A stretch of 64,000 bases of DNA from Fibrobacteria bacterium (GTDB lineage Bacteria; Fibrobacterota; Chitinivibrionia; Chitinivibrionales; FEN-1185), in assembly GCA_037447435.1 (NCBI GenBank), contig JBBIGR010000002.1, forward strand, positions 160,001 through 224,000. Direction: 5' to 3'. The stretch's first letter is position 1; each line of letters opens with the position of its first letter. The notes under the pieces were generated by a model, which saw nothing but the letters and a program-made list of their open reading frames with translations, had not been told where the DNA came from and did no database searches. Made by a program: the position numbers and the translations under genes. Positions 26,683-42,823 of this stretch are shown here, in pieces.

Positions 26683-29112
26683 ATGAGGAAAAACAATGTC
26701 CCCTTTTTTTCAAAAATGATAGTGTGTCAACTCCTGGCGGTTTCGTTGCTATTTGCGCAATTTTCGAGGCAGCACTATACCCTCAACTCGCTGGCCTGGA
26801 AATTCAAGAAGGCCGACGTAAGCGGAGCCGAGGCTACAGCGTTCAGTGATGCCGCGTGGCAAAGCATTACCATTCCGCACGATTTCAACGGCGGAATAGA
26901 TAAAGTAAACAATGACGTTTATACCGGCCCCAAAATGTACCGCGGCATCGGCTGGTATCGCGTCCATTTTCCTATCGATGCGAAATATCAGGGGAAAAAA
27001 ATATTCATCGATTTCGACGCTGCGTCGCTGGTAACGGATGTTTGGATCAACGGTACCCATATCGGACAGCATAAAGGCGGGTATACTGCATTTTCTTACG
27101 ACATTACCCCAAATGTTACCATCGGCGGCGACAATGTCCTTGCAGTTAAAGTGAACAGTGCAAACGATCCGAAAATCGCTCCGTGGATGCAAACGCCGTT
27201 TGGAACATATCCCACCAGTTACGATTATGCCGTTTACGGCGGAATTTATCGGAGCGTTTGGATAACCGTAACCGACCAGGCAAAAATCGAAGCGACGTTC
27301 ATCACCACGCCGGGCGTTTCTGCCGCATCTTCGCAAGTGCGTGTAAAAACAGAGGTTACCAACTATGCCGCGACGGCGCAATCGATTACCCTCACCACAA
27401 CCGTCGCGGATTCGACGGGTGCGACGGTAGCAACATTAACAAATACGCAAAGCGTTAACGCCGGTCAATTATATACTTTTGACCAAACGACCGCAAGCAA
27501 CGTCAGCTCCCCGCATCTCTGGTCACCGTCCTCGCCGTATCTTTACAAAGTGCATTCAACGCTTACCGTAGCCGGCACAGAAATCGACCAGTTCGACAGT
27601 CCGCTTGGATTCAGATGGTTTTCCATGCCGAAAACAAACGCCCAGTTCACGCTTAACGGCCAGCCGCTTTTTATACAAGGCGTCAACCGGCATCAGGATT
27701 GGATAGGCCTTGGGTGGTCATTGACAAGCGATCAACATCGTTACGATATGCAACTCATTAAAGACGGCGGATTCAATTTCGTTCGCCATGCCCATTATCC
27801 CGCGGATCAGTCTGCGATGAAAGCCTGCGACGAACTGGGGCTTTTGTCCTGGCTGGAAGTTCCGGTAACGGTTTCAATATCCACAGACCCGGACTTTTTA
27901 GCCAATGCGAAAAGCCAGCTCACTGAAATGATTCGACAAAACTACAACCACCCCAGCGTCATAATCTGGAGCATCGGAAACGAATCGGACCAAGCTGCGG
28001 CAAGTGCAAACCCTGCTTTGACCGAATCATATGCGAATTCTTTCAACAATTCTCTCAACGACCTTGCCCATCAACTCGATGCGACCCGTACCACGGCAGG
28101 CAGCAATTTCAAGCTTACATCCGACCAGGCAATTTCGGACATTTATTCACCCCATGTATTCCTTGGATGGTATGGCGGTGTTTATACCTCATACAGCCCG
28201 GTTGTATTTACAAGTGAATATGGTGCCGACGCGGACGTAACCATCCATAAAGAGCCCGGCAGCCAAAAGCTTGACGATTGGAGCCAGGAGTATCAGTGTC
28301 TGCTGCATGAAGCCTTTGTTGCCCGCGGTCAGGCAGTCAAGACTCAGTTTACCGGCCAATGCTTGTGGGTAATGTTCGATTTCGCATCACCCCGGGCAGA
28401 TAGAGTTATTGCCGCAAACAGCAACACGATAAATTATATGAATCAAAAAGGACTTTTTGGAGCAGATCACACCACCCCGAAAGATGCCTACTATTTTTAT
28501 CAGAGTTTTTATACGGATAAAACCAAAGCCCCAATGGTTTACATTGTTTCGCATTCATGGCTTAACCGTTGGACCGCGGCCGCAAGTAAAACGGTTTGGG
28601 CGTACAGCAATTGCGATAGCGTTGAACTTTTCAATTCCTTTGGGAGCGAATCTTTTGGCAAAAAAGCAAGGACCGCCGGAGAAAACACGATTAAAACCCG
28701 TTTCCAATGGGATAATGCATCGGTCAAATACAACATTCTTTATGCGCAAGGCTATGTGGGCGGTAAGATAGTTGCAAGGGATACGATCGTGCTGAAAAAC
28801 CTGCCGAACCCTCCGGGAGTTTCGTCAATAGTCGGTCTTGGCCAAAAAGCAAAACTATCAACTCCGGAAATTAAAATTACTTCGACAAACGGTCAATATT
28901 GCCTAACCGGCCGAATTCCGGCAAAATATTCCGGGCAATTATCCCTGTATTCAATTACCGGCGTTAAAATTACCACACTTCAAAACAGCAGCGCCGCAGA
29001 ATCGGGCGATGTTTCCGTGGTGTTAAATGCCGGAATGCTTTCAAAAGGAGTTTATTTACTAAAAGCCGAAGGAAAGGCAGCAACCTGGGCTAAACAATTC
29101 TTAGTTTTTTAA
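26683..29112 (+). CDS. Secreted GH2 glycoside hydrolase (beta-glucuronidase/galactosidase-like) with a T9SS-like C-terminal domain
   Basis: Signal peptide; IPHDFN, HKGGYTAF, YGGIYRSV, GVNRHQD, VRHAHYP, WSIGNE and SEYGA; tail LSLYSITGVKI...LSKGVYLLK. Confidence 0.93.
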   Translation: MRKNNVPFFSKMIVCQLLAVSLLFAQFSRQHYTLNSLAWKFKKADVSGAEATAFSDAAWQSITIPHDFNGGIDKVNNDVYTGPKMYRGIGWYRVHFPIDAKYQGKKIFIDFDAASLVTDVWINGTHIGQHKGGYTAFSYDITPNVTIGGDNVLAVKVNSANDPKIAPWMQTPFGTYPTSYDYAVYGGIYRSVWITVTDQAKIEATFITTPGVSAASSQVRVKTEVTNYAATAQSITLTTTVADSTGATVATLTNTQSVNAGQLYTFDQTTASNVSSPHLWSPSSPYLYKVHSTLTVAGTEIDQFDSPLGFRWFSMPKTNAQFTLNGQPLFIQGVNRHQDWIGLGWSLTSDQHRYDMQLIKDGGFNFVRHAHYPADQSAMKACDELGLLSWLEVPVTVSISTDPDFLANAKSQLTEMIRQNYNHPSVIIWSIGNESDQAAASANPALTESYANSFNNSLNDLAHQLDATRTTAGSNFKLTSDQAISDIYSPHVFLGWYGGVYTSYSPVVFTSEYGADADVTIHKEPGSQKLDDWSQEYQCLLHEAFVARGQAVKTQFTGQCLWVMFDFASPRADRVIAANSNTINYMNQKGLFGADHTTPKDAYYFYQSFYTDKTKAPMVYIVSHSWLNRWTAAASKTVWAYSNCDSVELFNSFGSESFGKKARTAGENTIKTRFQWDNASVKYNILYAQGYVGGKIVARDTIVLKNLPNPPGVSSIVGLGQKAKLSTPEIKITSTNGQYCLTGRIPAKYSGQLSLYSITGVKITTLQNSSAAESGDVSVVLNAGMLSKGVYLLKAEGKAATWAKQFLVF

Positions 29113-29840: not shown

Positions 29841-32228
29841 ATGCGAAAAAGCATTATCGGTCTTTTTATGTTTCTTTTTGCGGCGAGCGCAACGAGCATT
29901 TTTGCCGTACCCACAACGTTGGACACGGTGTCGGTCCCGGTAAAACTTCTTAAATGCCTTTCATCATCTCCAACCGTTTCCTATTATGTTGGGAAAGTCA
30001 ACTACGACATGCACATTCACGACAATGATTCCCTGAGCATCGTATTGTCTTTTGATCCTGTCGGAGCGGGCGGCGCGGTCACCGTCGATTCCGTAAAGGG
30101 CGATGTCGGTATTGTCCCTCTTGCCAATGGAATAAACGGGACAAACGAAATTTATTTCTGGTGTCATATTACCGGCACGCCGGCAACGACCTATACGGCT
30201 AAAGTGACGATCAATGACGGTCAAAGCAATATCGAAAAAACAACAAATGCCTTGGTCGCACAAATGACCAACGGAGAAAAAGCAGCTCAATGTTATTCGA
30301 ATGGAAACCGGGAATACCCCGATCTTAACAAATACGGCGGCATTCCGGGATTCTACATGGCCAACGGAACTTCGGGTCCGTGTCAGCTCGTAAGCGGATA
30401 TTCCACATCGTTTCCTACCGGTGCCGCAATGACCTGCACTTTCGATAAGCAGCTTATGGATAGTGTCGGTACTGCCATTGCGCAGGAATTCTGGGCAAAA
30501 GGCCATTATATGATCGAGGCACCCATGATCAACATGGTGATTGACCCGCGCGGTGGAAGAAACTGGGAAACTTTTGGTGAAGACCCGTATCTTGCCGCCC
30601 AACTCGGTCTTGCGTATTGCAACGGCGCTCAGAAATTGAATTGCATTATTACCCCCAAACACATCATTTGCAACGACCGTGAAACAAACCGTTCGAAATA
30701 CAGCTCAAATATCACGGAACGTCCGTTGCGTGAAAATTATTTGTTGCCTTTTGAATACATCGTCAAGGAAGGCAAAGCGTGGGGCATCATGAGTGCATAT
30801 AACCAGGTCAATAATACCTATTGCCCTGCCAACACCCATTTGCTGACCGATATCCTGAAAACCGACTGGGGATTCAGAGGCTTTACGATTTCCGATTGGG
30901 ACGCGATGAACAATAACACCGCCGCACAATGCGCAAACGCGGGTCAGGACGTTGAATTGCCGGATGCCGTCGTGTATTCTCAGCTTGCAAACGTGGTGCC
31001 CAGCCAGGTTGCGCAAACGAGGCTTGACGATATGGCAAAAAGAGTGATTCGGACAAAAGTATGGTCCGGCGTCATCGGTAAACTTGGGACAAATGCAAAC
31101 ACGAAATACGCCGCAACGCTCGAATCGCAAAATCACAAAGACTTGGCATTGCAAACCGCCTTAAAATCAATCGTTCTTGTGAAGAATGCCAATTTCGGAA
31201 CACCGGCCGCACCTACATTGCCGTTAGATCCAAACAAAACCGTTGCGGTTGTCGGAACCTATTATAATCAATGCAGACAATGGGGAGTCGGAGCCATTGC
31301 AAGCGGAAAACCGTGTCCCGACCCTGCCGCCGGTATTCAAGTAGCTCCGGATGCCGGCATCAGTGCCAGAGCGGGCGCAAAGTATCTTGCGCAGAATTGG
31401 CAATCGGCAGACCAGGTCGTAGTCGTCGTGGGTGTTTCCGGCGAAGCTGAAAACCAGGATAGATCTTCATTGTACATTACGCCCGCCAACACGGATAACG
31501 CGCTTATCGCGTCGATTATCGCAGCCGGAAAAAAATGCGTCGTCGTAATGACCGGCGGAAGCCCTGCGGTTCAGGAAGGCTGGGCAAATGCAAATGCGGT
31601 ACTTGTCGAATGGTATGGCGGCCAAGCTCAGGGTACGGCGCTGGCCCAGATTTTATACGGCGATGTAAACCCCTCGGGCCGACTATCGGCTTCCTTTCCT
31701 GCAAGCGCAGGTCAATTGCCTGCATTTTCCGATGCGCCGACCGCTATCCAATATGAAAACTATACGACTGATTTTGGAAGAGGATATCGCTATTACGATC
31801 AGAATAATCTCATCCCGTTGTATGCGTTCGGCTACGGTTTAAGCTACACGACATTCCAATACAGCAATTTAACCATTAATCCCAGCCCTCTGTACGTCGG
31901 TCAATACGTCGTTACGGTCGACATCAAGAATACGGGAACTAAAGCCGGCGATGAAGTCGCCGAACTGTACATTCATCCGAACGCTTCGCCGAAACCCAGA
32001 CCGGTTAAGGAATTGCGAGGCTTTAATCGGGTAACGCTGGCGGCAGGCGAGACAAAAACCGTGTCCTTTACCATTCGAGAAAGAGAACTTGCCTATTTCG
32101 ATGACGGCACGGGCGTGAACAAATTTGTCGTCGCACCGGGCGCGTACACAATCCTGGTTGGGCCGTCATCGTATGCCGGACAAGGGTTGACCGCTTTCCC
32201 CGTTTCCGGAACTCTTACGGTGCAATAG
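29841..32228 (+). CDS. Secreted GH3 beta-glycosidase with an extra N-terminal beta-rich domain and C-terminal Fn3-like domain
   Basis: GGRNWETFGEDPYL, TPKH, IMSAYNQVN, ILKTDWGFRGFTISDW, PSGRL, AFGYGLSYTTF and RPVKELRGF. Confidence 0.95.
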   Translation: MRKSIIGLFMFLFAASATSIFAVPTTLDTVSVPVKLLKCLSSSPTVSYYVGKVNYDMHIHDNDSLSIVLSFDPVGAGGAVTVDSVKGDVGIVPLANGINGTNEIYFWCHITGTPATTYTAKVTINDGQSNIEKTTNALVAQMTNGEKAAQCYSNGNREYPDLNKYGGIPGFYMANGTSGPCQLVSGYSTSFPTGAAMTCTFDKQLMDSVGTAIAQEFWAKGHYMIEAPMINMVIDPRGGRNWETFGEDPYLAAQLGLAYCNGAQKLNCIITPKHIICNDRETNRSKYSSNITERPLRENYLLPFEYIVKEGKAWGIMSAYNQVNNTYCPANTHLLTDILKTDWGFRGFTISDWDAMNNNTAAQCANAGQDVELPDAVVYSQLANVVPSQVAQTRLDDMAKRVIRTKVWSGVIGKLGTNANTKYAATLESQNHKDLALQTALKSIVLVKNANFGTPAAPTLPLDPNKTVAVVGTYYNQCRQWGVGAIASGKPCPDPAAGIQVAPDAGISARAGAKYLAQNWQSADQVVVVVGVSGEAENQDRSSLYITPANTDNALIASIIAAGKKCVVVMTGGSPAVQEGWANANAVLVEWYGGQAQGTALAQILYGDVNPSGRLSASFPASAGQLPAFSDAPTAIQYENYTTDFGRGYRYYDQNNLIPLYAFGYGLSYTTFQYSNLTINPSPLYVGQYVVTVDIKNTGTKAGDEVAELYIHPNASPKPRPVKELRGFNRVTLAAGETKTVSFTIRERELAYFDDGTGVNKFVVAPGAYTILVGPSSYAGQGLTAFPVSGTLTVQ

Positions 32229-32391: not shown

Positions 32392-33837
32392 ATGAAGAAC
32401 ATGACAGCAAAATCATCCGTACTGGGGGTACTGATTGCTGTATCGCTTTGTTTCGCGGACAATCTTGACACTATGGAATCTCCGACGACGTTAACGCCGC
32501 CGCCGCCCGCTGCAGCGCCGGAGGCTTCGGGAGTAAAAATAAAGCAAAGCGGTTTTCTGGGATTTGAAGGCGGCGAAATCGTTGAAGGAACCATGGATGC
32601 AAACCATTCGACCGAAACCGTCTCAAACGACGGCGGGCAAGGGCTTTTCGAAAAAGCGTGGATGGAAAGGATGTTGTTTCAGTGGGTCAACGATATATCC
32701 GTGACCGATCGCATCAAATTGGTGCTTGCAATCGAATGCCAGATGGGTTTCCACTTTCCGTATGATCAGACCGTTCTGTATGAATCGCATCAACCCGCAT
32801 TCACCTTTTACCCGGACAGGGCCGAAGGTACATATACGTTGGGCGATTTGGACAGACCCTGGTTGCAAATCGGATTCGGTTATTTCCCTTTTAGAACCGC
32901 TCCCGACGTCCGAAACCTCGGGGAATATTTGTTCCGTACAAATACCTATCCCGTCTATGTCATGAACAATTTCAATCGGCCTTATTCAAGACTTCTCGGA
33001 TTTCGATTCAGCAGCACGTTATTCGACAGTCTGCATATGGACCTTCTCTTGACAAGCTCAAACCTTCTTCCGCCCCTGGTCGATTACTCATTATCCTTTG
33101 TCGCCAGCTATCGAGTGCTGAAATGTCTTGATATCGGCGGCGGAATCAGCGCGTGCCATTTGTTCAATACGTATGACGCCCAGGAAACCAATAAAGATTA
33201 CCGTTACATTAAAGATAACGGGGATACGGCGCAATACACGTTTGAAGGCACAAAGCTGATGGCCCGTTTTGCGTTTGACCCTAAGCCGATTTTCGGATTG
33301 CAGAATACGTTCAGTAAAGCGGATCTTCGGCTGTACGGCGAATGGTGCATAACCGGCGTTTCCGACCAAAAGAATTACGATACCGTATCGACGGATCCGA
33401 CGAATTTCGGCGGACATTTTTATGATAATCCCAACGACCGGATGCTTTACATGATGGGATTGAATCTTCCGTTTTTCAGGCTGATTCAATTAGCGTCTTT
33501 TGATGTCATCAAAGAGACTCCCGACGATGTCTTTTCGATCGAAGTCGAGCATTTTCCGAATAAATATGCAAACTCGGGTATGGAAGTTTTCGGCAGAACC
33601 GGGCCCTGGAAACCGATTCCCGATCCGCCGTCCAATGCATTGGTCAGCTCCGTCTTTCCCTGGTTCTGGTCGTTTTATTTTAAAAAGAACTTCCTCGACC
33701 ATTTCGCTCTTATCGTGCAATTGGCCCGGGACCATATGCGTCCGGTCGCCAACAATCCCAACTACTATTACACCGAGGATGTTCTCGAAAGACAACAAGA
33801 CTGGTGGTGGAATGTCCGTTTGAACCTCAACTATTGA
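32392..33837 (+). CDS. Hypothetical outer-membrane beta-barrel protein
   Basis: Signal peptide, aromatic-rich alternating strands and a C-terminal beta-signal-like WWWNVRLNLNY. Confidence 0.65.
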   Translation: MKNMTAKSSVLGVLIAVSLCFADNLDTMESPTTLTPPPPAAAPEASGVKIKQSGFLGFEGGEIVEGTMDANHSTETVSNDGGQGLFEKAWMERMLFQWVNDISVTDRIKLVLAIECQMGFHFPYDQTVLYESHQPAFTFYPDRAEGTYTLGDLDRPWLQIGFGYFPFRTAPDVRNLGEYLFRTNTYPVYVMNNFNRPYSRLLGFRFSSTLFDSLHMDLLLTSSNLLPPLVDYSLSFVASYRVLKCLDIGGGISACHLFNTYDAQETNKDYRYIKDNGDTAQYTFEGTKLMARFAFDPKPIFGLQNTFSKADLRLYGEWCITGVSDQKNYDTVSTDPTNFGGHFYDNPNDRMLYMMGLNLPFFRLIQLASFDVIKETPDDVFSIEVEHFPNKYANSGMEVFGRTGPWKPIPDPPSNALVSSVFPWFWSFYFKKNFLDHFALIVQLARDHMRPVANNPNYYYTEDVLERQQDWWWNVRLNLNY

Positions 33838-33927: not shown

Positions 33928-35205
33928 GTGACAGACGCAAAAAAAAATACCGGATATTTCAGATGGATCATTTGCGGCGTCCTCTTTCTTGCCATGACCA
34001 TCAACTATATCGATCGGCAAGTCATCAGCATACTGAAACCCATGATAGTATCCTGGCCCGGTTGGTCGGAACTCGAATATGGCCGGGTCATATCGTTCTT
34101 TCAGCTTTCCTATGCGCTTGCCATGATCGGCGCCGGCGCACTGATTGACAAAATTGGAATCAAAAAAGGCTTTATCATCGCAATTACGTTTTGGAGCCTT
34201 GCAGCCATGGGGCACGCGATTTCCGGAACCGTCGTTTCTTTTATACTATGGCGGATTCTTCTGGGAATCGGCGAAGCCGCGAATTTTCCCGCCGCAGTGA
34301 AGACCGTTGCGGAATGGTTTCCGAAAAGTCAACGCGCCCTCGCCACCGGCATTTTCAATTCCGGCACCAATATCGGCGCCTTCGTTACGCCGTTTGCCGT
34401 TGCATGGATACTGACGTCGCTTGGAACATGGCGCTGGGTTTTCATTTTGACCGGCGCTATCGGGTTTTTGTGGCTTGTATTGTGGCTCATCATTTACAAA
34501 AGACCGGAAAAGCATCCCCGTCTCTCGCCGGAAGAATTGGCATTCATTCAAAGCGAACCTGAAGAAAAAATCGAAAAGACGCCCTGGCTTTCCCTTTTCG
34601 GCCATAAACAAACCTATGCCTTTTTATTGGGAAAATTCCTTACCGATCCTATTTGGTGGGTATGGCTTTTTTGGGTGCCCGGCTTTTTAAACAAGAAATT
34701 TCACGTCAATATTACCGATATGAAAACGATGGGCATTTCTTTGGTCGTCATTTATACCATGGCCAGCGTCGGATCGATTGTCGGCGGATGGCTGCCGGCC
34801 TTTTTCATCAAACGGGGACTTTCATTGAACGTCGCACGCAAAAGCTCGATGTTGCTTTGTGCGCTTTGCGTCGTGCCGGTCGTCGGTGCGGCATTTACGG
34901 CAAATATCTGGGTTGCGGTTTTACTTATCGGACTTGCCTGCGGAGCGCATCAAGGCTGGTCGGCAAATATGTATACCCTCGGTTCCGATATGTTTCCCAA
35001 AGGCGCTGTCGGATCGGTTGTCGGAATTGCGGGTGCGGCCGGCGGAATCGGCGGATTCATCATGGCAAACTATATCGGTGCGATTCTAAATAAGAACGCC
35101 AGTAATTATTTGCCGATTTTCGTTATTGCCGGATCGATGTATTTGCTGGCTCTATTGATTATCCAGGTTATCGTACCGAGACTTGAGAAAGCAAAAATCG
35201 CCTGA
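33928..35205 (+). CDS. exuT: MFS hexuronate transporter (ExuT family)
   Basis: RWIICGVLFLAMTINYIDRQ, GEAANFPAAVKTVAEWFP..RALATGIFNSG, KFLTDPIWW and HQGWSAN; GTG start after AAGGA. Confidence 0.9.
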   Translation: MTDAKKNTGYFRWIICGVLFLAMTINYIDRQVISILKPMIVSWPGWSELEYGRVISFFQLSYALAMIGAGALIDKIGIKKGFIIAITFWSLAAMGHAISGTVVSFILWRILLGIGEAANFPAAVKTVAEWFPKSQRALATGIFNSGTNIGAFVTPFAVAWILTSLGTWRWVFILTGAIGFLWLVLWLIIYKRPEKHPRLSPEELAFIQSEPEEKIEKTPWLSLFGHKQTYAFLLGKFLTDPIWWVWLFWVPGFLNKKFHVNITDMKTMGISLVVIYTMASVGSIVGGWLPAFFIKRGLSLNVARKSSMLLCALCVVPVVGAAFTANIWVAVLLIGLACGAHQGWSANMYTLGSDMFPKGAVGSVVGIAGAAGGIGGFIMANYIGAILNKNASNYLPIFVIAGSMYLLALLIIQVIVPRLEKAKIA

Positions 35206-35234
35206 ATAGGTGGATTTACCAAAAGGTACCGACT

Positions 35235-35666
35235 ATGAAATACGTGTTCGACAGCAAAAACAGCAAACGATATGCGTTTCCTACTCACAGCAACGATTTG
35301 ATAATAGACAGGGCCGATGCGTCCGCATCGGAGGTGTTTATTGTCATTGTAGAACCGGGAAAAGCGGTCCATTTGCATTCGCACGAAGATGTCGAACAGA
35401 TTTTTTATATTTTAGAGGGAGACGGGATCCTCACGATCGGCGAAGCGAAAGATGAAATTGAAGTTCATCCGACAAATGTCGTAAAAATTCCTCCAAAAAC
35501 CCTTCATACAATCCGGGCAAAATCCGATAAGGAAATCCGTTATCTTTGCGTGGATTGCTTTTGTTCGCAGCAAAAAGTAAAGGAACCGACGTGGGATTCG
35601 CATGTGAAAGTGATGTGCAACGAGCAAGGCTACAAATTCGAAGATATCATTAAATTTCAAAAATAA
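35235..35666 (+). CDS. Cupin-domain protein
   Basis: PGKAVHLHSHEDVEQIFYILEG and IPPKTLHTI cupin metal motifs. Confidence 0.85.
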   Translation: MKYVFDSKNSKRYAFPTHSNDLIIDRADASASEVFIVIVEPGKAVHLHSHEDVEQIFYILEGDGILTIGEAKDEIEVHPTNVVKIPPKTLHTIRAKSDKEIRYLCVDCFCSQQKVKEPTWDSHVKVMCNEQGYKFEDIIKFQK

Positions 35667-35699
35667 AATTCTTACATGGCATAAAAGGAGCACAGCGCA

Positions 35700-37151
35700 A
35701 TGGGACAACAAGCAGATATTGCCGTCATCGGTCTCGCAGTAATGGGACAAAACCTCATTTTAAATATGAATGACCACGGCTACACGGTCGCAGCTTTCAA
35801 TCGAACGGTTAGCCTTGTAGACGATTTCCTTGCCAATGCGGCCAAGGGTACGAACGTCGTCGGGGTACGATCGATTCAGGAAATGATGAGCGTTTTAAAA
35901 CGACCTCGGAAAATAATGCTCATGGTCAAAGCCGGATCTCCGGTCGACTCCACAATAGAACAGATTCTTCCGTTTTGTGAAAAAGGCGACTGTATCATAG
36001 ACGGCGGGAACTCCTACTTTACAGATACGATACGCCGCACAAAATTCCTCGAAGAAAAAGGCATATTATTCATCGGAACCGGCGTTTCCGGCGGAGAAGA
36101 GGGCGCCCGGAACGGCCCGTCCATCATGCCCGGCGGAAGTGCCGCCGCCTGGCCATTAGTCAAAGATATCTTCAAGGCTATTTCCGCAAAAACCCCCGAC
36201 GGTTCTTCGTGTTGCGAATGGGTGGGAAACGGCGGCGCGGGTCATTATGTCAAGATGGCGCATAATGCCATCGAGTATGGCGATATGCAAATCATTTGCG
36301 AAGCATATCACCTTATGAAGAATATCGGAATTTCCGCCTCCGAAATGCAATCGATATTCACCCAATGGAACAAGACCGAACTCGACAGCTATCTTATTGA
36401 AATAACAGCCGAAATTTTAGCGGTCAAAGATTCCGACAATACTCCGCTCGTCGACAAAATCCTGGACCTTGCCGGGCAAAAAGGCACGGGAAAATGGTTC
36501 AGCGTAAACTCCTTGGACCTTGGCATTCCGGTAACGCTTATCGCCGAAGCCGTGTACGCACGATGTTTGTCGGCGCTTAAAGACGAGCGTGTTGTTGCAT
36601 CGAAAAAAATCAAAGGACCGTCGACTTTGTTCGGCGGCGATAAAAAGGCGTTTATCGAAGATATCCGCCAGGCGCTTTTGGCATCCAAAATAATTTCCTA
36701 TGCGCAGGGGTTTATGTGCATGCGTGAAGCGCAAAAGGAATACGGCTGGACGTTGAACTTCGGCGACATCGCCCTCTTATGGCGCGGCGGCTGCATCATA
36801 CGCAGCGCGTTTCTTGACAAAATTAAATCGGCATTCGATAAAAACCCCGATCTGGCAAATTTGCTGCTTGACGACTATTTCAAAACCGTTGTCGAAAATT
36901 GCCAGGCGTCCTGGCGCAGGGTCGTTTCCCAAGCCGTGCTGATGGGTATCCCGTTACCCGCCTTTTCATCGGCGCTTGCGTTTTTCGACGGGTATCGAAG
37001 CGAGCAACTGCCTGCGAATTTATTGCAAGCGCAACGGGATTATTTCGGCGCTCATACATACAGCAGGACCGATAAACCGCGCGACCAGGTATTTCATACC
37101 AATTGGAACGGGCGGGGCGGCAACGTGACGTCGAGATCGTATCTTGCGTAG
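35700..37151 (+). CDS. gnd: 6-phosphogluconate dehydrogenase, decarboxylating (NADP)
   Basis: IGLAVMGQNL, IIDGGNS, GVSGGEEGA, GQKGTGKW, WRGGCIIRS and QAQRDYFGAHTY. Confidence 0.98.
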   Translation: MGQQADIAVIGLAVMGQNLILNMNDHGYTVAAFNRTVSLVDDFLANAAKGTNVVGVRSIQEMMSVLKRPRKIMLMVKAGSPVDSTIEQILPFCEKGDCIIDGGNSYFTDTIRRTKFLEEKGILFIGTGVSGGEEGARNGPSIMPGGSAAAWPLVKDIFKAISAKTPDGSSCCEWVGNGGAGHYVKMAHNAIEYGDMQIICEAYHLMKNIGISASEMQSIFTQWNKTELDSYLIEITAEILAVKDSDNTPLVDKILDLAGQKGTGKWFSVNSLDLGIPVTLIAEAVYARCLSALKDERVVASKKIKGPSTLFGGDKKAFIEDIRQALLASKIISYAQGFMCMREAQKEYGWTLNFGDIALLWRGGCIIRSAFLDKIKSAFDKNPDLANLLLDDYFKTVVENCQASWRRVVSQAVLMGIPLPAFSSALAFFDGYRSEQLPANLLQAQRDYFGAHTYSRTDKPRDQVFHTNWNGRGGNVTSRSYLA

Positions 37152-37182
37152 TTAAACATTTTCCGAACGGAACATATTCACA

Positions 37183-38637
37183 ATGTCATATATGTCGAAT
37201 AATTTTTTGCTCCACAACAAGACGGCCGAGACGCTTTTTCATTCCTATGCGGAATCGATGCCGATTTTGGATTATCATTGCCATCTTTCCCCAAAATCGA
37301 TTGCCGAGGATGAAAAATTCGATACCATAACGCAATTGTGGCTCGGCGGCGATCATTACAAATGGCGGCTCATTCGCGCCAACGGCGCGGATGAAAACAG
37401 TATTACGGGAAGCGCATCGGATTTTGAAAAATTCCTCAGGTGGTCTTCCACCCTGTCGCGGGCGATTAGAAATCCGCTTTACGATTGGGCGCATCTGGAA
37501 TTGCAACGCTACTTCGGCATCGACACGCTCTTGTCGGAAGATACTGCGACGGCAATCTACGGCGCTTGCAATGAGAAACTCAAGGAAGAATCGTTTTCCG
37601 CGAGAAACCTTCTCAGATTCATGAAGGTCAAGACCGTCTGTACGACCGACGATCCGATAGATTCTCTTGCATACCATGCCAAATTGCGGGACGACGGATT
37701 CGAAATCGCGGTATTGCCGTCGTTTCGGGCCGATAAAGTAATGGCAATACAAAATCCCGGCCAATTCAACCGGTATCTCGATTTGCTGTCGGAATCGACA
37801 TCGATATCGATACGGTCTTTCGAGGCCATGATCGAAGCTCTTGACATGCGACATGAATTCTTTCATGCCCAAGGATGCAGGGTCGCGGACAGCGCCTATA
37901 CGATTATCCCGACCGGGCAATTCACCGCGTCCCGGATCAAATCGATTTTCGAATGCCTTCGGTCGGGCAACCCGGTTTCGAAGCAAGAAATACCGGTATA
38001 TCAGTATGCCGTGGCGCTCGAACTCTCGAAAATGAACCATAAAAGAAATTGGGTTCAGCAATTGCATTGCGGCGTATTGCGCAATGTACGGACGGCATTG
38101 TTGGGACAAATCGGTCCGGATGCCGGCGGCGACTGTATGGGAGATTATCCGATCGCCGAATCGCTGTGCACCTATTTTAACGATCTTGACCAAAGCGGGC
38201 AACTGGCCAAAACGGTCATGTACAACATCAATCCCCGGGACAATGATTTGCTCGCAAACATCGTCAACACGTTTATGGACGGCTCCTGTCCGGGAAAAAT
38301 CCAATACGGTCCCGCCTGGTGGTTTTGCGACAACAAAGACGGCCTTATTTCTCATTTGAAATCACTTTCATCGAGCGGCCTTTTGGGAAGATTCATCGGC
38401 ATGACCACCGATTCGCGTTCCTTGCTCTCTTTTGTCCGGCATGAATATTTCCGGCGCATCCTCTGCAATTTCCTCGGCACTGAAATGGAAGCCGGAGATG
38501 TTCCGCAGGATATTCCGTTTATCGGCAGACTGATTCGCGATATCTGTTTTTACAATGCCCAGGAATATTTCGGATTCAATTCATCACAACAAACATCAAT
38601 TCGGAGAGAACAATATGAATGCGCAAATGCCCTCTGA
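37183..38637 (+). CDS. uxaC: Uronate (glucuronate) isomerase
   Basis: PILDYHCHL, WLGGDHYKWR, NPLYDW.HLEL, CTTDDP, AWWF.D and GMTTDSRS..S..RHEYFRR. Confidence 0.96.
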   Translation: MSYMSNNFLLHNKTAETLFHSYAESMPILDYHCHLSPKSIAEDEKFDTITQLWLGGDHYKWRLIRANGADENSITGSASDFEKFLRWSSTLSRAIRNPLYDWAHLELQRYFGIDTLLSEDTATAIYGACNEKLKEESFSARNLLRFMKVKTVCTTDDPIDSLAYHAKLRDDGFEIAVLPSFRADKVMAIQNPGQFNRYLDLLSESTSISIRSFEAMIEALDMRHEFFHAQGCRVADSAYTIIPTGQFTASRIKSIFECLRSGNPVSKQEIPVYQYAVALELSKMNHKRNWVQQLHCGVLRNVRTALLGQIGPDAGGDCMGDYPIAESLCTYFNDLDQSGQLAKTVMYNINPRDNDLLANIVNTFMDGSCPGKIQYGPAWWFCDNKDGLISHLKSLSSSGLLGRFIGMTTDSRSLLSFVRHEYFRRILCNFLGTEMEAGDVPQDIPFIGRLIRDICFYNAQEYFGFNSSQQTSIRREQYECANAL

Positions 38638-39466
38638 TCTCAATAACAAACGCGTGATAATCACCGGGGGCGCTGGTATTATTTGCGGCGAAATAGCGAC
38701 CTTCCTCGCACAAGCCGGTGCTTCGGTTGCGATTCTTGATTTAAGCGCGGAGCGGGCAGAGCAGAAAGCTTTGGAAATTTCCAAAACCTGCAACCAAAAA
38801 GCTATCGGCATCGGCTGTAACGTTCTTGACAAGAAATCCTGCGACGCTGCCAACGACAAAATCAAGGAAGCCTTCGGCGGCGCGGACATCCTCATCAACG
38901 GAGCCGGCGGGAACTCTCCCAAAGCAACAACCGCCTGCGAATTCATCGCCGATGCGGACATCGACAACCTCGACCAAACTTTTTTCGGACTGGATATCGA
39001 CGCATTTCGAAACGTTTTCGATCTGAATTTCATGGGCACCCTGTTACCGACCATGATTTTTGCACGGTCGATGGTACAAAACAAAGACGGCGTCGTATTG
39101 AATATTTCTTCAATGAATTCATACCGGCCGCTTACCCGAATTCCGGCATATTCCGCAGCCAAAGCGTCCATCAACAACTTCACGGCGTGGCTCGCCGTTC
39201 ATTTGGCAAAACAGAATGTCCGCGTCAACGCGATCGCTCCGGGCTTTTTATTGACAAACCAAAACAGGTTTCTTTTGACCGACCCCAACACGGCCGAGCT
39301 GACCGCCCGCGGATCGAAGATCCTTTCAGCCACACCGATGAACCGGTTCGGCACACCCGAGGATTTATTGGGTGCGGTGAAGTTCCTTGTTTCCGACATG
39401 TCTAAATTCGTCACCGGTATCGTCATCCCTATCGACGGCGGCTTTTCCGCATACAGCGGAGTATAA
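38615..39466 (+). CDS. uxuB: SDR-family D-mannonate oxidoreductase (fructuronate reductase)
   Basis: ITGGAG, LINGAGGN.PKATT, FDLNFMGTLLPT, NISSM..YRPLTRIPAYSAAK and DGGFSAYSGV, typical of the SDR-type UxuB. It follows uxaC. Confidence 0.85.
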   Translation: MNAQMPSDLNNKRVIITGGAGIICGEIATFLAQAGASVAILDLSAERAEQKALEISKTCNQKAIGIGCNVLDKKSCDAANDKIKEAFGGADILINGAGGNSPKATTACEFIADADIDNLDQTFFGLDIDAFRNVFDLNFMGTLLPTMIFARSMVQNKDGVVLNISSMNSYRPLTRIPAYSAAKASINNFTAWLAVHLAKQNVRVNAIAPGFLLTNQNRFLLTDPNTAELTARGSKILSATPMNRFGTPEDLLGAVKFLVSDMSKFVTGIVIPIDGGFSAYSGV

Positions 39467-39468
39467 CG

Positions 39469-39978
39469 ATGATTATCGTTGTTATGGGGGTTTCCGGGTG
39501 CGGAAAGTCTACGATTGCGGAATTACTTGCAAACAAACTCGGCATTTCTTGGTATGATGCCGATAATTTTCATCCGCAAGCCAATATCGACAAGATGAAA
39601 AACGGAATACCTTTGACTGATGCCGACCGGATGCCGTGGCTGAACCGCCTTTCTTTTGAGATGGTTTTTTGGGAAAACGAAGGCGGCGCGGTGTTGGCGT
39701 GTTCGGCGCTTAAAGAATCCTATCGTACGATCCTACGGGGGCAGGAAAAAGGTAACGTGAGGTTTGTGTATTTGCAAGGAAGCAAAGAATGCATTCTTAA
39801 CCGAATGAAGCAACGGAGCGGTCATTATATGCCGACGTCTCTTTTAGATAGTCAATTTGCAACGCTCGAGGTTCCGCAAAACGCAATTACCGTTTCAATA
39901 GAAGAATCTCCTGAAACCATCGTCGAAACCATTGTATCGCAATTGAAAAAGGCGAAATCACCACATGATGCTCTTTGA
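39469..39978 (+). CDS. gntK: Gluconokinase (GntK/IdnK type)
   Basis: VMGVSGCGKST, DADNFHP.ANI.KM..GIPLTDADR.PWL, LACSALK..YR and HYMP.SLLDSQF.TLE. Confidence 0.93.
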   Translation: MIIVVMGVSGCGKSTIAELLANKLGISWYDADNFHPQANIDKMKNGIPLTDADRMPWLNRLSFEMVFWENEGGAVLACSALKESYRTILRGQEKGNVRFVYLQGSKECILNRMKQRSGHYMPTSLLDSQFATLEVPQNAITVSIEESPETIVETIVSQLKKAKSPHDAL

Positions 39979-41236
39979 AAAAATAAATACGACGGAGTAT
40001 TTGTCCGACCTTGAATTAAAAAACGGTATTTCCACCGCTCTTGCGGCATTGGGAACCGTTACGAAAATGCTTATCGTACCTCCCGATATCACAAGACTCC
40101 ATTCGGAAGCGGGCAAATTGACCCGTTTTGCCTACGATTTTAATCCTTCCGCCATATCGGCGATTATGCCCGCATTGGGCACTCATGTCGCAATGAATGA
40201 AGAAGAGCTTTCGAGGATGTTCGGCGATATCCCGAAAAAACTTTTTAAAGTCCATGATTGGCGAAACGATTGCGTCAATCTTGGGGCAATCAAACGTGAT
40301 TTTGTCAAAGAAGTTTCCCAAGGGGCGGTCGATTACGATATTCCGGTCGAAGTAAACCGTATCCTCGTCGAGCAAAAACATGATTGTATTTTGTCTATCG
40401 GTCAGATCGTGCCCCATGAAGTTGCCGGAATGGCCGGGCATGCAAAAAATATTTTCGTGGGCCTCGGCGGCGCGCAAAACATTCACAAAAGCCATTTTCT
40501 CGGCGCTGCGTTCGGCATAGAGAAAATCCTCGGTAAAACCGATTCTCCGGTCAGAAAAGTATTCGATTATGCAATGGAGACCTATTTGGGTTCATTGCCC
40601 ATTGTCCACGCTCTAACCGTTATCGGACGGGATAAAACCGGAAAATTACGGGTAGCGGGTCTTTTTATCGGTACCGGCAAGGAATGTTTTCTGCACGCTG
40701 CAGAGCTGTCGCGCGCGATAAATTTCGAACAGGTGCCGACTCCCCTTTCTACGGTTGTAACGTATCTTGACCCTGTGGAATATAAAAGTTTTTGGCTCGG
40801 CAATAAAAGCATATACCGCACACGAATGGCAATTGCCGACAACGGTCGTCTCATCGTTATCGCACCGGGATTGAAAGCATTTGGAGAAGATGCCCAAATC
40901 GATTCGCTCATTAGAAAATACGGTTATAAAGGAACGCCGTACGTTATGGATTGCATACGGAAAAACGATGATTTGAAAAGCAATTTAAGTGCGGCGGCGC
41001 ATTTGATACACGGATCGACCGAAGGCCGATTCACCGTCACGTATTGCGTTTCCCATATGAGCAAACACGACGTGGAAAATGCGGGCTTTGAGTATGCGTC
41101 CGCAGAGGATATGCTCAAGCGTTACGATCCGTCTGCCTTGACACCCGGCACCAACATCCTTGCCGACGGAGAAGAAATCTATTTTATTCCGAACCCTGCC
41201 ACGGGCCTTTGGGCCTACGAAGGCAGAATCTCTTAA
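39965..41236 (+). CDS. LarA/lactate-racemase-family protein (DUF2088), putative D-mannonate/D-gluconate 2-epimerase
   Basis: PPDITR, ALGTH, VHDW and VPHEVAGMAGHAK match the LarA DxTR, GxH, PH and GxxK motifs. The substrate is inferred from context. Confidence 0.8.
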   Translation: MMLFEKINTTEYLSDLELKNGISTALAALGTVTKMLIVPPDITRLHSEAGKLTRFAYDFNPSAISAIMPALGTHVAMNEEELSRMFGDIPKKLFKVHDWRNDCVNLGAIKRDFVKEVSQGAVDYDIPVEVNRILVEQKHDCILSIGQIVPHEVAGMAGHAKNIFVGLGGAQNIHKSHFLGAAFGIEKILGKTDSPVRKVFDYAMETYLGSLPIVHALTVIGRDKTGKLRVAGLFIGTGKECFLHAAELSRAINFEQVPTPLSTVVTYLDPVEYKSFWLGNKSIYRTRMAIADNGRLIVIAPGLKAFGEDAQIDSLIRKYGYKGTPYVMDCIRKNDDLKSNLSAAAHLIHGSTEGRFTVTYCVSHMSKHDVENAGFEYASAEDMLKRYDPSALTPGTNILADGEEIYFIPNPATGLWAYEGRIS

Positions 41237-41257: not shown

Positions 41258-42823
41258 ATGGCGTACCGAACCGCACGTTGTTCAGCATTGTTTTTATGTA
41301 TCGTTTTTTTACTTTTCACACCGATTTTTGCGGCAACATCGCTGACGCTCGCCGTTTCGACCGACAGCGTTCGCTTCACGATACCGGATAATTTTATGGG
41401 CCTCAGTTACGGTCCGGACGCCATCGGCGATACGACGCAATTGAGTCCGACCGATAATGCGATGCTGTTGCTTTTGCGCCAAATCGGGCCCGGTGTCCTG
41501 CGCTTTGGCGGAAATTCCATGGACAATAAGGGAATCATTCCTTTCGATTCTTTAAAATATCGGCGAGCCTTGGATTTCGTATCGGCGATCGGGTGGAAAA
41601 CAATGATGGGTTTACCTCTGGGCACCTTTGACACGACCGGTGCAAAAAGCATCGTTTCATTCATATCCTCTTACGGCAAGAAGAACCTGATTTCCTACGA
41701 AATTGGAAACGAACCGGATTTATATTCGCGAAACGGCTTACGGGCAACCACGTATGCGGTGACGGATTATGAAAAGGAATTCTCCCAATATTACGCTGCC
41801 GTCAGAAAAATAGTTCCCGATGCTCCATTTTCCGGCCCTACCACCGCAACCGCGCCGTGGGTCGTTCCTTTTGCCGCAGCCGCCGCTTCACAAATCATGC
41901 TGCTCACGCAGCACCACTATGTCGAAGGCCCGGCAGGAGACCCGAGCGTTACTATTGCGAAACTGCTTAGTCCTTCGTCGAAGCAGGCTATCGTTTCTAA
42001 AATGAACACCATGTACGCAGCAGCTGCCGCAGCCGGCGTTCCGGCAAGATTATCGGAATGCAACTCGGTATACAGCGGCGGCCAAAAAGGCGTGAGCGAT
42101 GTTTTTGCCGCAGCCCTTTGGACGGCCGATTTCATGTTCTCGATTGCAAATGCCGGTATCGTAGGCGTCAATTTCCACGGCGGCGGCACCGGCCCCTATA
42201 CGCCGATCGCCGATTCCGCCGGCACGCTGAAGCCGCGCCCGGAATATTACGGCATGCTGTTTTTCAAGTACGCCTCATCGGGAAAAATCGTCAAATCGAA
42301 ACTCAATGATACGACAGTCAATGTCGGTGCATATGTCGTAAAATCGAGCGGCGATTCGGTAAAAGTCTCCCTTATAAATAAAGACAGCGTAAACGCCTAT
42401 ACGATAACCGTGCAGGGAATATCGTCTCAAAATCCGGGAACGCTTGTCCGTTTACAGGCCGCATCGCTTCATTCGACAAGCGGTATTACTCTTGGCGGGG
42501 ATTCCATCGGTATAGCGAAAGCATGGTCTCCGAGCGCGTCCGAAACCGTCGCGCGCTCAGCCAATCAATATGTGGTGAGCCTTCCGAAGGCAAGCGCAGC
42601 CGTTTTAACCGTTCCGACCGGATTGACATATACGGAACAAAGCAGGAATGCGCCGCGAAAAGAAAACGGTACGTCGATACGTATACTTGTTCCCGGTTCC
42701 AAATTCAAACCGCTAAACAACGCGCTTTACTATTCATTGCGCGGTGAAAAAATGGACGGGTATTTTGAGGCGGGAAATCGTAACCGGCAAATCCTCGTCG
42801 AACGAAAGAATACGGGCGAGTAA
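41258..42823 (+). CDS. Secreted GH79-like beta-glucuronidase/heparanase
   Basis: Signal peptide; FMGLSY, LRFGGNS, YEIGNEPDLY, HHY, RLSECNS…GG..GVSDVFAAALW..D and PEYYGML; degenerate sorting tail YYSLRGE. Confidence 0.87.
   Translation: MAYRTARCSALFLCIVFLLFTPIFAATSLTLAVSTDSVRFTIPDNFMGLSYGPDAIGDTTQLSPTDNAMLLLLRQIGPGVLRFGGNSMDNKGIIPFDSLKYRRALDFVSAIGWKTMMGLPLGTFDTTGAKSIVSFISSYGKKNLISYEIGNEPDLYSRNGLRATTYAVTDYEKEFSQYYAAVRKIVPDAPFSGPTTATAPWVVPFAAAAASQIMLLTQHHYVEGPAGDPSVTIAKLLSPSSKQAIVSKMNTMYAAAAAAGVPARLSECNSVYSGGQKGVSDVFAAALWTADFMFSIANAGIVGVNFHGGGTGPYTPIADSAGTLKPRPEYYGMLFFKYASSGKIVKSKLNDTTVNVGAYVVKSSGDSVKVSLINKDSVNAYTITVQGISSQNPGTLVRLQAASLHSTSGITLGGDSIGIAKAWSPSASETVARSANQYVVSLPKASAAVLTVPTGLTYTEQSRNAPRKENGTSIRILVPGSKFKPLNNALYYSLRGEKMDGYFEAGNRNRQILVERKNTGE

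Follow-up and report, generated by a model that had tools for sequence, protein, structure and literature searches.

A probable glucuronate operon of a Fibrobacteria bacterium with a LarA-family protein predicted to stand in for mannonate dehydratase

The window analyzed here is a stretch of 64,000 nucleotides (nt) from a Fibrobacteria bacterium of the order Chitinivibrionales (assembly GCA_037447435.1, contig JBBIGR010000002.1, positions 160,001 to 224,000 of the forward strand). Its subject is a tandem of seven open reading frames (ORFs), exuT-cupin-gnd-uxaC-uxuB-gntK-larA, spanning 33928..41236 on the + strand. The first four ORFs, exuT to uxaC, are separated by 29, 33 and 31 nt; uxaC then overlaps uxuB by 23 nt, gntK starts after a gap of 2 nt, and its end overlaps larA by 14 nt. 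An earlier note, made from the sequence alone, had described these seven genes as tightly packed on one strand, in agreement with the spacing of -23 to 33 nt. Its gene list was right for the seven but missed a gene for a GH79 homologue, which begins 21 nt past larA. The features are as follows (scores are given against the cut-off of the model).

33928..35205, +, ExuT-like major facilitator superfamily (MFS) transporter (PF07690; 30% to Escherichia coli ExuT), for which hexuronate uptake is likely
35235..35666, +, Cupin_2 protein (PF07883)
35700..37151, +, gnd, decarboxylating 6-phosphogluconate dehydrogenase (TIGR00873, 752 against 427)
37183..38637, +, uxaC, uronate isomerase (NF002794, 548 against 387; 45% to E. 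coli UxaC)
38615..39466, +, uxuB, D-mannonate oxidoreductase (fructuronate reductase) of the short-chain dehydrogenase/reductase (SDR) type (NF006132, 385 against 281)
39469..39978, +, gntK, gluconokinase of the GntK/IdnK type (TIGR01313, 184.8 against 113.75)
39965..41236, +, larA homologue, LarAH group 18, GntE-type (NF052594, 593.4 against 500)
41258..42823, +, GH79 beta-glucuronidase homologue (PF03662 and PF16862) with a signal-peptide-like N-terminus

The best NCBIfam match of the transporter was TIGR00893, at 224 bits, under the cut-off of 395. ExuT-like homologues adjoined larA in the fetched loci of 4 of 26 related genomes of the order. The SDR, whose start codon was chosen by a GGAGAG site, was 51% identical to the SDR of a uxuA-uxuB-eda-kdgK operon in a relative (G045). 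Its Asp42, which we take to confer NAD(H) preference, suggests that the enzyme uses NAD(H). Gnd carries the motif Asn34-Arg35-Thr36, presumably of the NADP type. The GH79 protein matched the Acidobacterium capsulatum beta-glucuronidase (3VNY/5G0M) at E 5e-82. We interpreted its gene as probably the eighth of the operon and a source of the substrate, which its presence suggests to be glucuronate. A scan for promoter-like sites (11 versus 14.6 expected) and terminator-like sites (21 versus 16.7 expected) was uninformative.

The predicted route begins with the GH79 enzyme, which would release glucuronate from a glucuronide, and the ExuT-like transporter, which would take it up. UxaC would convert glucuronate to fructuronate, and the SDR UxuB would reduce this to D-mannonate, likely with NADH. 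The LarA homologue would then turn D-mannonate into D-gluconate by proton-coupled hydride transfer at C2, with a cofactor made by the products of larB, larC and larE, genes that lie on other contigs. GntK would phosphorylate D-gluconate to 6-phosphogluconate at the cost of ATP, and Gnd would convert the latter to ribulose 5-phosphate, CO2 and NADPH. Ribulose 5-phosphate would enter the non-oxidative pentose phosphate pathway. We consider it very probable that the operon turns glucuronate into ribulose 5-phosphate and CO2 in this way, with a nickel-pincer 2-epimerase replacing the absent mannonate dehydratase; the activities and the flux are read from the sequences.

The balance would be one ATP and one NAD(P)H in and one NADPH out. 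The route would thus be redox-neutral, in effect an exchange of NADH for NADPH. The earlier note had listed NADPH as a product; Gnd would indeed make it, but no net gain is expected, as one NAD(P)H would already have been used by the reductase. The same note had called the route 'non-Ashwell'. This was too broad: UxaC and UxuB form the upper part of the Ashwell pathway, and the replacement would concern its lower half alone.

The LarA homologue scored 593.4 bits with NF052594, the NCBIfam model for LarAH group 18 (putative hexonate epimerase), and 32-56 bits with the models of other LarA groups. Its best match in the Protein Data Bank (PDB) was 4NAR, the GntE2 of Thermotoga maritima (E 2.4e-38). 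The catalytic residues D72, H108, H174 and K298 of LarA correspond to D41, H74, H151 and K281, and the cofactor-binding R75, K184 and H200 to R44, K161 and H177. The published group-18 row reads W L N K S A A L I H S, with an E-V loop, the W in helix 11 and the A-H in helix 14 (PMC7583248). Compared with 20 of the 25 rows of Dataset S2 of Desguin 2020, residues W277, L278, N280, K281, S342, A344, A345, H346, L347, I348, H349 and S351 agreed with the group-18 row, and E152-V153 together with A345-H346 agreed with the E,V,A,H signature published for GntE. The catalytic, cofactor and signature positions were invariant in 120 of 120 close homologues, except V153, which is kept in 118. Records named Chitinivibrionales, Chitinispirillaceae and Fibrobacterota supply close homologues of the protein. 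We therefore predicted the product of 39965..41236 to be a D-mannonate/D-gluconate 2-epimerase.

A dehydratase was then looked for in the rest of the source genome (99.57% complete, 96 contigs). The window holds no uxuA, kdgK or eda, as the earlier note had said. UxuA, ManD/RspA, Edd, UxaA and UxaE were not found in the genome. The one enolase-family (MR_MLE) protein over cut-off was rejected as ManD/RspA, as it lies in a menaquinone operon (MenC context). An Edd-like match was also rejected, being IlvD. None of the four PfkB proteins was KdgK-like: the nearest was 27% identical to E. coli KdgK and gave 81-111 bits with models of 2-keto-3-deoxygluconate (KDG) kinase whose cut-offs are at least 400. 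Three of the four were scanned with these models, and the fourth was read as a ribokinase. On the other hand, an eda homologue is present (C5:90748-91404; TIGR01182, 170 against 156). It stands as an orphan between proline-synthesis and alanine-racemase-like genes, as judged by eye. The two same-genus relatives checked (G062 and G064) have an eda-kdgK pair instead of an orphan eda.

The cofactor genes larB (C16:14823), larC (C7:75195) and larE (C17:80444) lie on three other contigs, all over cut-off. The genome also has zwf, tkt, tal, rpe, rpiB and a second gnd (C13:12146). Only one LarA homologue was found in the genome. Across genome contigs more widely, a scan with this single protein gave just five loci, a narrow taxonomic context for the epimerase.

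These searches bear on a different exit for the carbon. An Entner-Doudoroff-type branch could be formed by a dehydratase that is promiscuous or went unrecognized, together with a PfkB kinase and the orphan Eda; the epimerase and Gnd would then be a side branch, as may hold in Thermotoga. Some IlvD enzymes dehydrate sugar acids, the eda homologue passes its model, and one PfkB protein shares 27% identity with E. coli KdgK. T. maritima has both branches (PMC3750489). Against this stand the missing UxuA, ManD and Edd, the PfkB scores far under the KDG-kinase cut-offs, and the unrelated neighbors of eda. The enolase-family proteins in six relatives with a group-18 LarA were just 22-24% identical to RspA. 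Such a branch is therefore extremely improbable, and conversion of mannonate to gluconate remains the favored step.

To see how the genes are distributed, 81 genomes of the order were profiled. UxaC was present in 27 and group-18 LarA in 27 (25 over cut-off and two fragments at contig ends). Both occurred together in 26 genomes, and neither in 53. UxuA was found in G045 only, which has uxaC and the uxuA-uxuB-eda-kdgK operon without a group-18 LarA; none of the 26 genomes with both uxaC and the epimerase has uxuA. All five same-genus genomes lack uxaC and epimerase alike. In the loci fetched around the epimerase in 26 relatives, several of which stop at contig edges, gnd was seen in 19, an SDR in 14 and uxaC in 9. 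One of them, G009, has exuT-gnd-uxaC-uxuB-kinase-larA, which is the order of the source operon minus the cupin. Some relatives carry UxaE near the epimerase locus.

The earlier note had proposed that the LarA homologue bridges the gap between mannonate and gluconate. This gained support from the family membership, the conserved residues, the absence of a dehydratase, the pattern of uxaC, LarA and uxuA over the order, and the gene fusions described below. The note had also held that uxuA-kdgK-eda elsewhere, with no conserved linkage in relatives, would speak against it. In the search it called for, uxuA and kdgK were not found in the source genome, eda was present as an orphan, and larB, larC and larE were found; over the order, uxuA was confined to G045 and the linkage with gnd, SDR and uxaC recurred. 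The proposal is therefore not refuted on this count.

The kinase step was less uniform. Of the 27 epimerase genomes, 3 have GntK, 12 a PfkB clade and 9 a HAD hydrolase, with no overlap among the sets; in the other 3, none of the three kinds was found. The PfkB clade in this slot is tight (78-100% identical). In a quick tree of 35 rows with N-terminal extensions trimmed, which is for descriptive use only, the source epimerase was sister to a PfkB-slot protein, in a clade of 13 (11 with PfkB and 2 with GntK). This suggested that GntK probably entered the kinase slot more than once.

In G075, GntK is fused to the group-18 LarA (L067:5586-7352) in a uxaC-uxuB-[gntK-larA] operon. Such fusions made up 12 of the 120 matches listed; GntK is the leading domain in 10 of them and LarA in 2. 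Their records (P0121-P0129, P0133, P0136 and P0137) include Lentisphaeria, Sumerlaeota and Saccharobesus, and one, on a plasmid of Saccharobesus litoralis, carries the NCBI name D-mannonate epimerase.

The fusions bear on the order of the two steps. In the reverse order, which the earlier note had offered as an alternative, GntK would phosphorylate mannonate and the LarA homologue would epimerize 6-phosphomannonate to 6-phosphogluconate. Phosphorylation first has been found biochemically in Lactobacillus suebicus, with the genes unknown (Valk 2020; PMC6978723), and this counts against the order favored here. No test of GntEs on phosphorylated substrates was found in the accessible text of the GntE literature. 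The source kinase, on the other hand, is of the GntK/IdnK type, whose human member is gluconate-strict among 122 compounds; the main text on the human enzyme gave no match to 'mannon-', so that mannonate is unnamed there. The assayed GntE2 and LarAH15 act on free D-mannonate in vitro (PMC7583248, PMC11770544), and the source protein retains the group-18 signature. The published assay measures the gluconate formed from mannonate by a gluconate kit (PMC7583248). The fusions and the strictness of human GntK favor epimerization before phosphorylation, and the reverse order is the less likely one here, with a small chance of being right. The kit of that assay we take to be a gluconokinase/Gnd couple.

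We think it probable that the epimerase route, unlike the side branch of Thermotoga, is the order's only means of glucuronate use and is dependent on nickel and larBCE, given that 26 of the 27 uxaC genomes have the group-18 enzyme and lack a mannonate dehydratase. In this reading, unrelated genes (GntK, a PfkB clade, or a HAD protein alone or paired with a PFK-like one) would be interchangeable in the kinase slot, and GntK with its fusions would fix the order of the steps.

Further observations were made on the kinase slot. The conserved HAD hydrolase stands by the epimerase in 9 of the 81 genomes (L043-L050 and L072; e.g., L047:12303-13193), and in these GntK and the close PfkB clade are both absent. 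The hydrolase may belong to a gluconate phosphotransferase, or be a phosphatase for phosphomannonate repair. Another PfkB subfamily (L088-L093 and L044:5979-7064), which shares about 35% identity with the slot kinase, is present in 7 of these 9 genomes, in G017 directly after gnd, and may be their gluconate kinase; the other two have a PFK-like gene. Distant PfkB homologues (44-47%) were rejected as the operon kinase and read as KdgK, as they adjoin eda in the three loci with a visible upstream gene, of four fetched. Among the metagenome loci of at least 7 kb (n=32; L117-L196, the best 80 of 546), an SDR was seen in 24, larA in 21, gnd in 20, a PPi-PFK-like gene in 17, and gntK or PfkB in none.

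Several points weigh against the proposed role of the epimerase. The 4NAR match spans residues 13-356 of 423. An assayed member of the group is at hand only by an indirect placement: LarAH15 of Phytophthora nicotianae is a specific GntE with a KM of 9.4 mM for D-mannonate and a kcat of 111 per s (Urdiain-Arraiza 2024; PMC11770544), and the LarA part of a group-18 protein of P. infestans starts, by eye, with the residues encoded by the LarAH15 cloning primer. LarAH15 thus probably belongs to group 18, a placement by the match of a primer-encoded N-terminus to the P. infestans row and not by full alignment, and group 18 would then have an assayed member. Cofactor-dependent D-mannonate/D-gluconate epimerase activity is published just for GntE1, GntE2, LarAH15 and, in weak form, LarAH10 (PMC7583248, PMC11770544). 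No assayed bacterial group-18 enzyme was found in the accessible GntE literature.

The comparative evidence also has its limits. The 81 genomes are related and not independent, and many assemblies are fragmented. G007 has the group-18 LarA, and uxaC was not found in its 900 contigs. LarB occurs in 72 of the 81 genomes irrespective of the epimerase and gnd in 69, so neither the cofactor genes nor gnd are specific support. GntK is present in 15 genomes without the group-18 LarA and is, taken by itself, no specific marker. The distant GntE-like proteins found in the phylum are just 23-27% identical to the source protein.

The model NF052594 alone does not fix the substrate, because it also matches, over or near its cut-off, three second copies in the order that differ in specificity residues and neighborhood. 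These group-18 paralogues (L066, L068 and L069, second copies in G078, G077 and G079) have changed specificity residues, with an E-L loop and V-S/A-H-I-I-I. They lie in a cluster of the form regulator-SDR-SDR-(2-hydroxyacid dehydrogenase)-larA-glyoxalase-fold. They probably act on another substrate, as judged from these residues and neighbors.

By the same token, the source enzyme could prefer another hexonate or an aldarate, and the operon could serve different or wider uronates (e.g., mannuronate or galacturonate-derived acids). The three second copies show that the model tolerates such changes, and the cupin has no explanation in the glucuronate route. For GntE1, a group-19 enzyme, the published KM with mannonate is 120 mM, and the authors suspected a different substrate (PMC7583248). 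In the source epimerase, on the other hand, the group-18 residues are unchanged, Gnd and GntK require gluconate, UxaE and UxaA for galacturonate are missing from the genome, and on either side of the operon there are genes, GH79 and GH2, that resemble those of beta-glucuronidases. A different substrate is thus very unlikely, and glucuronate, by way of D-mannonate, was retained.

The cupin was tried as an essential pathway step and dropped. Its best PDB and Atlas matches were generic cupins, and most relatives are without it, so it is not essential. Of 295 further genomes in the phylum, just 2 have a homologue: in one it adjoins a likely GH67 gene, some 14 kb away from the same operon, and in the other its context is unrelated. 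The cupin is not a conserved part of the operon and is unneeded to explain the route.

The source operon was compared with known systems. The route was proposed for Thermotoga by Rodionova 2012, as recounted in PMC6978723, PMC3750489 and PMC7953866. A gluconate 2-epimerase in Thermotoga, which the earlier note mentioned, is borne out by the GntE reaction shown in vitro for GntE1 and GntE2 by Desguin 2020 (PMC7583248), who held that GntE probably gives D-mannonate access to the pentose phosphate pathway. In Thermotoga as in the predicted route, mannonate passes by gluconate and 6-phosphogluconate into that pathway, and gnd lies together with genes for a reductase, a kinase and a LarA-family epimerase with the same catalytic residues. 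The Thermotoga operon is aldH-pelB-gnd-uxaRED-gntEK, with a parallel kdgA-kdgK-uxuB-uxuA operon (Rodionov 2013; PMC3750489); the source genome has no such dehydratase branch. The epimerase is of group 18 in the source, whereas T. maritima GntE2 (PDB 4NAR) is LarAH20 of group 20. The kinase is of the GntK/IdnK type, in contrast to group 20, for which a sugar kinase of COG1070 is listed. The source operon also includes uxaC and a transporter, unlike that of Thermotoga, and lacks the UxaE of the Thermotoga-type shunt, which points to glucuronate rather than galacturonate.

For group 18 itself, which it names 'G2E3', Desguin 2020 proposed a hexonate substrate and listed as neighbors SDR (36%), gnd (32%), PfkB kinase (16%), MFS (12%) and uxaC (12%) (PMC7583248). 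The source protein passes the model of this group, with the same signature residues and the same neighbor types. GntK/IdnK is not among the published neighbors but is present in the source operon, which, unlike the published description, has the whole predicted route and the GH79 gene in one unit. In the isomerase/phosphoketolase route of L. suebicus, UxaC and UxuB likewise feed 6-phosphogluconate and Gnd, and the path to ribulose 5-phosphate is redox-neutral. There mannonate is phosphorylated first; here the GntE-type enzyme and the gluconate-type kinase point to epimerization first. With the Ashwell isomerase pathway (UxaC, UxuB, UxuA, KdgK and Eda) the source shares the first two enzymes; UxuA and KdgK are absent and Eda is an orphan elsewhere. 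The Ashwell products are pyruvate and glyceraldehyde 3-phosphate (GAP), and those predicted here are pentose phosphate and CO2.

Other genes near the operon and other LarA proteins were noted as well. Upstream of the transporter by 90 nt, a 481-aa protein (32392-33837, +) with a secreted or outer-membrane look could share the transcript; it had no Pfam or NCBIfam match. The GH2 gene (26683-29112, +) gave GH2 enzymes including beta-glucuronidases as its best PDB matches, and it has an N-x-K motif, which we take to be typical of glucuronidases. A GH3 gene is next (29841-32228).

In other orders of the phylum (L073-L078, in G001, G288, G295, G291, G242 and G294), the distant LarA proteins, at 23-27% identity, have a WT/VxG/AK motif and adjoin SDR, gnd or uxaC. 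We read these loci as the same route with another GntE subgroup. Within the order, a LarA homologue was detected in 36 of the 81 genomes, and larB without a detected LarA in 37, including the same-genus G062-G066, by a survey in which the Pfam Lar_N model is weak and was silent in the Corynebacterium glutamicum control. The nickel-pincer cofactor may have another client in these genomes.

The route itself is already known and would not surprise a specialist; the source operon is a sound annotation and a further case of it. No publication on the GntE route in Fibrobacterota was found among the matches listed, in a search that was thin in subscription journals. New here, as modest additions, are the replacement pattern over the order, with the epimerase present where uxuA is missing, and the GntK-LarA fusions. 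The source operon also contributes a complete module that is free of the dehydratase and has a canonical gluconokinase.

The role of GntE in cells is still called probable (PMC7583248). A genome free of the dehydratase, in which a single operon holds the whole route together with a gluconate-type kinase, makes this role easy to test in vivo. In databases, 'lactate racemase' is a common name for such proteins, and these bacteria would be scored as glucuronate-negative by any metabolic reconstruction that requires uxuA. Redox-neutral conversion of uronate to pentose phosphate is also of engineering interest (PMC6978723). If the epimerase route is the order's only glucuronate route, uronate use in these bacteria would be strictly dependent on nickel and larBCE, and the source operon would be its cleanest module.

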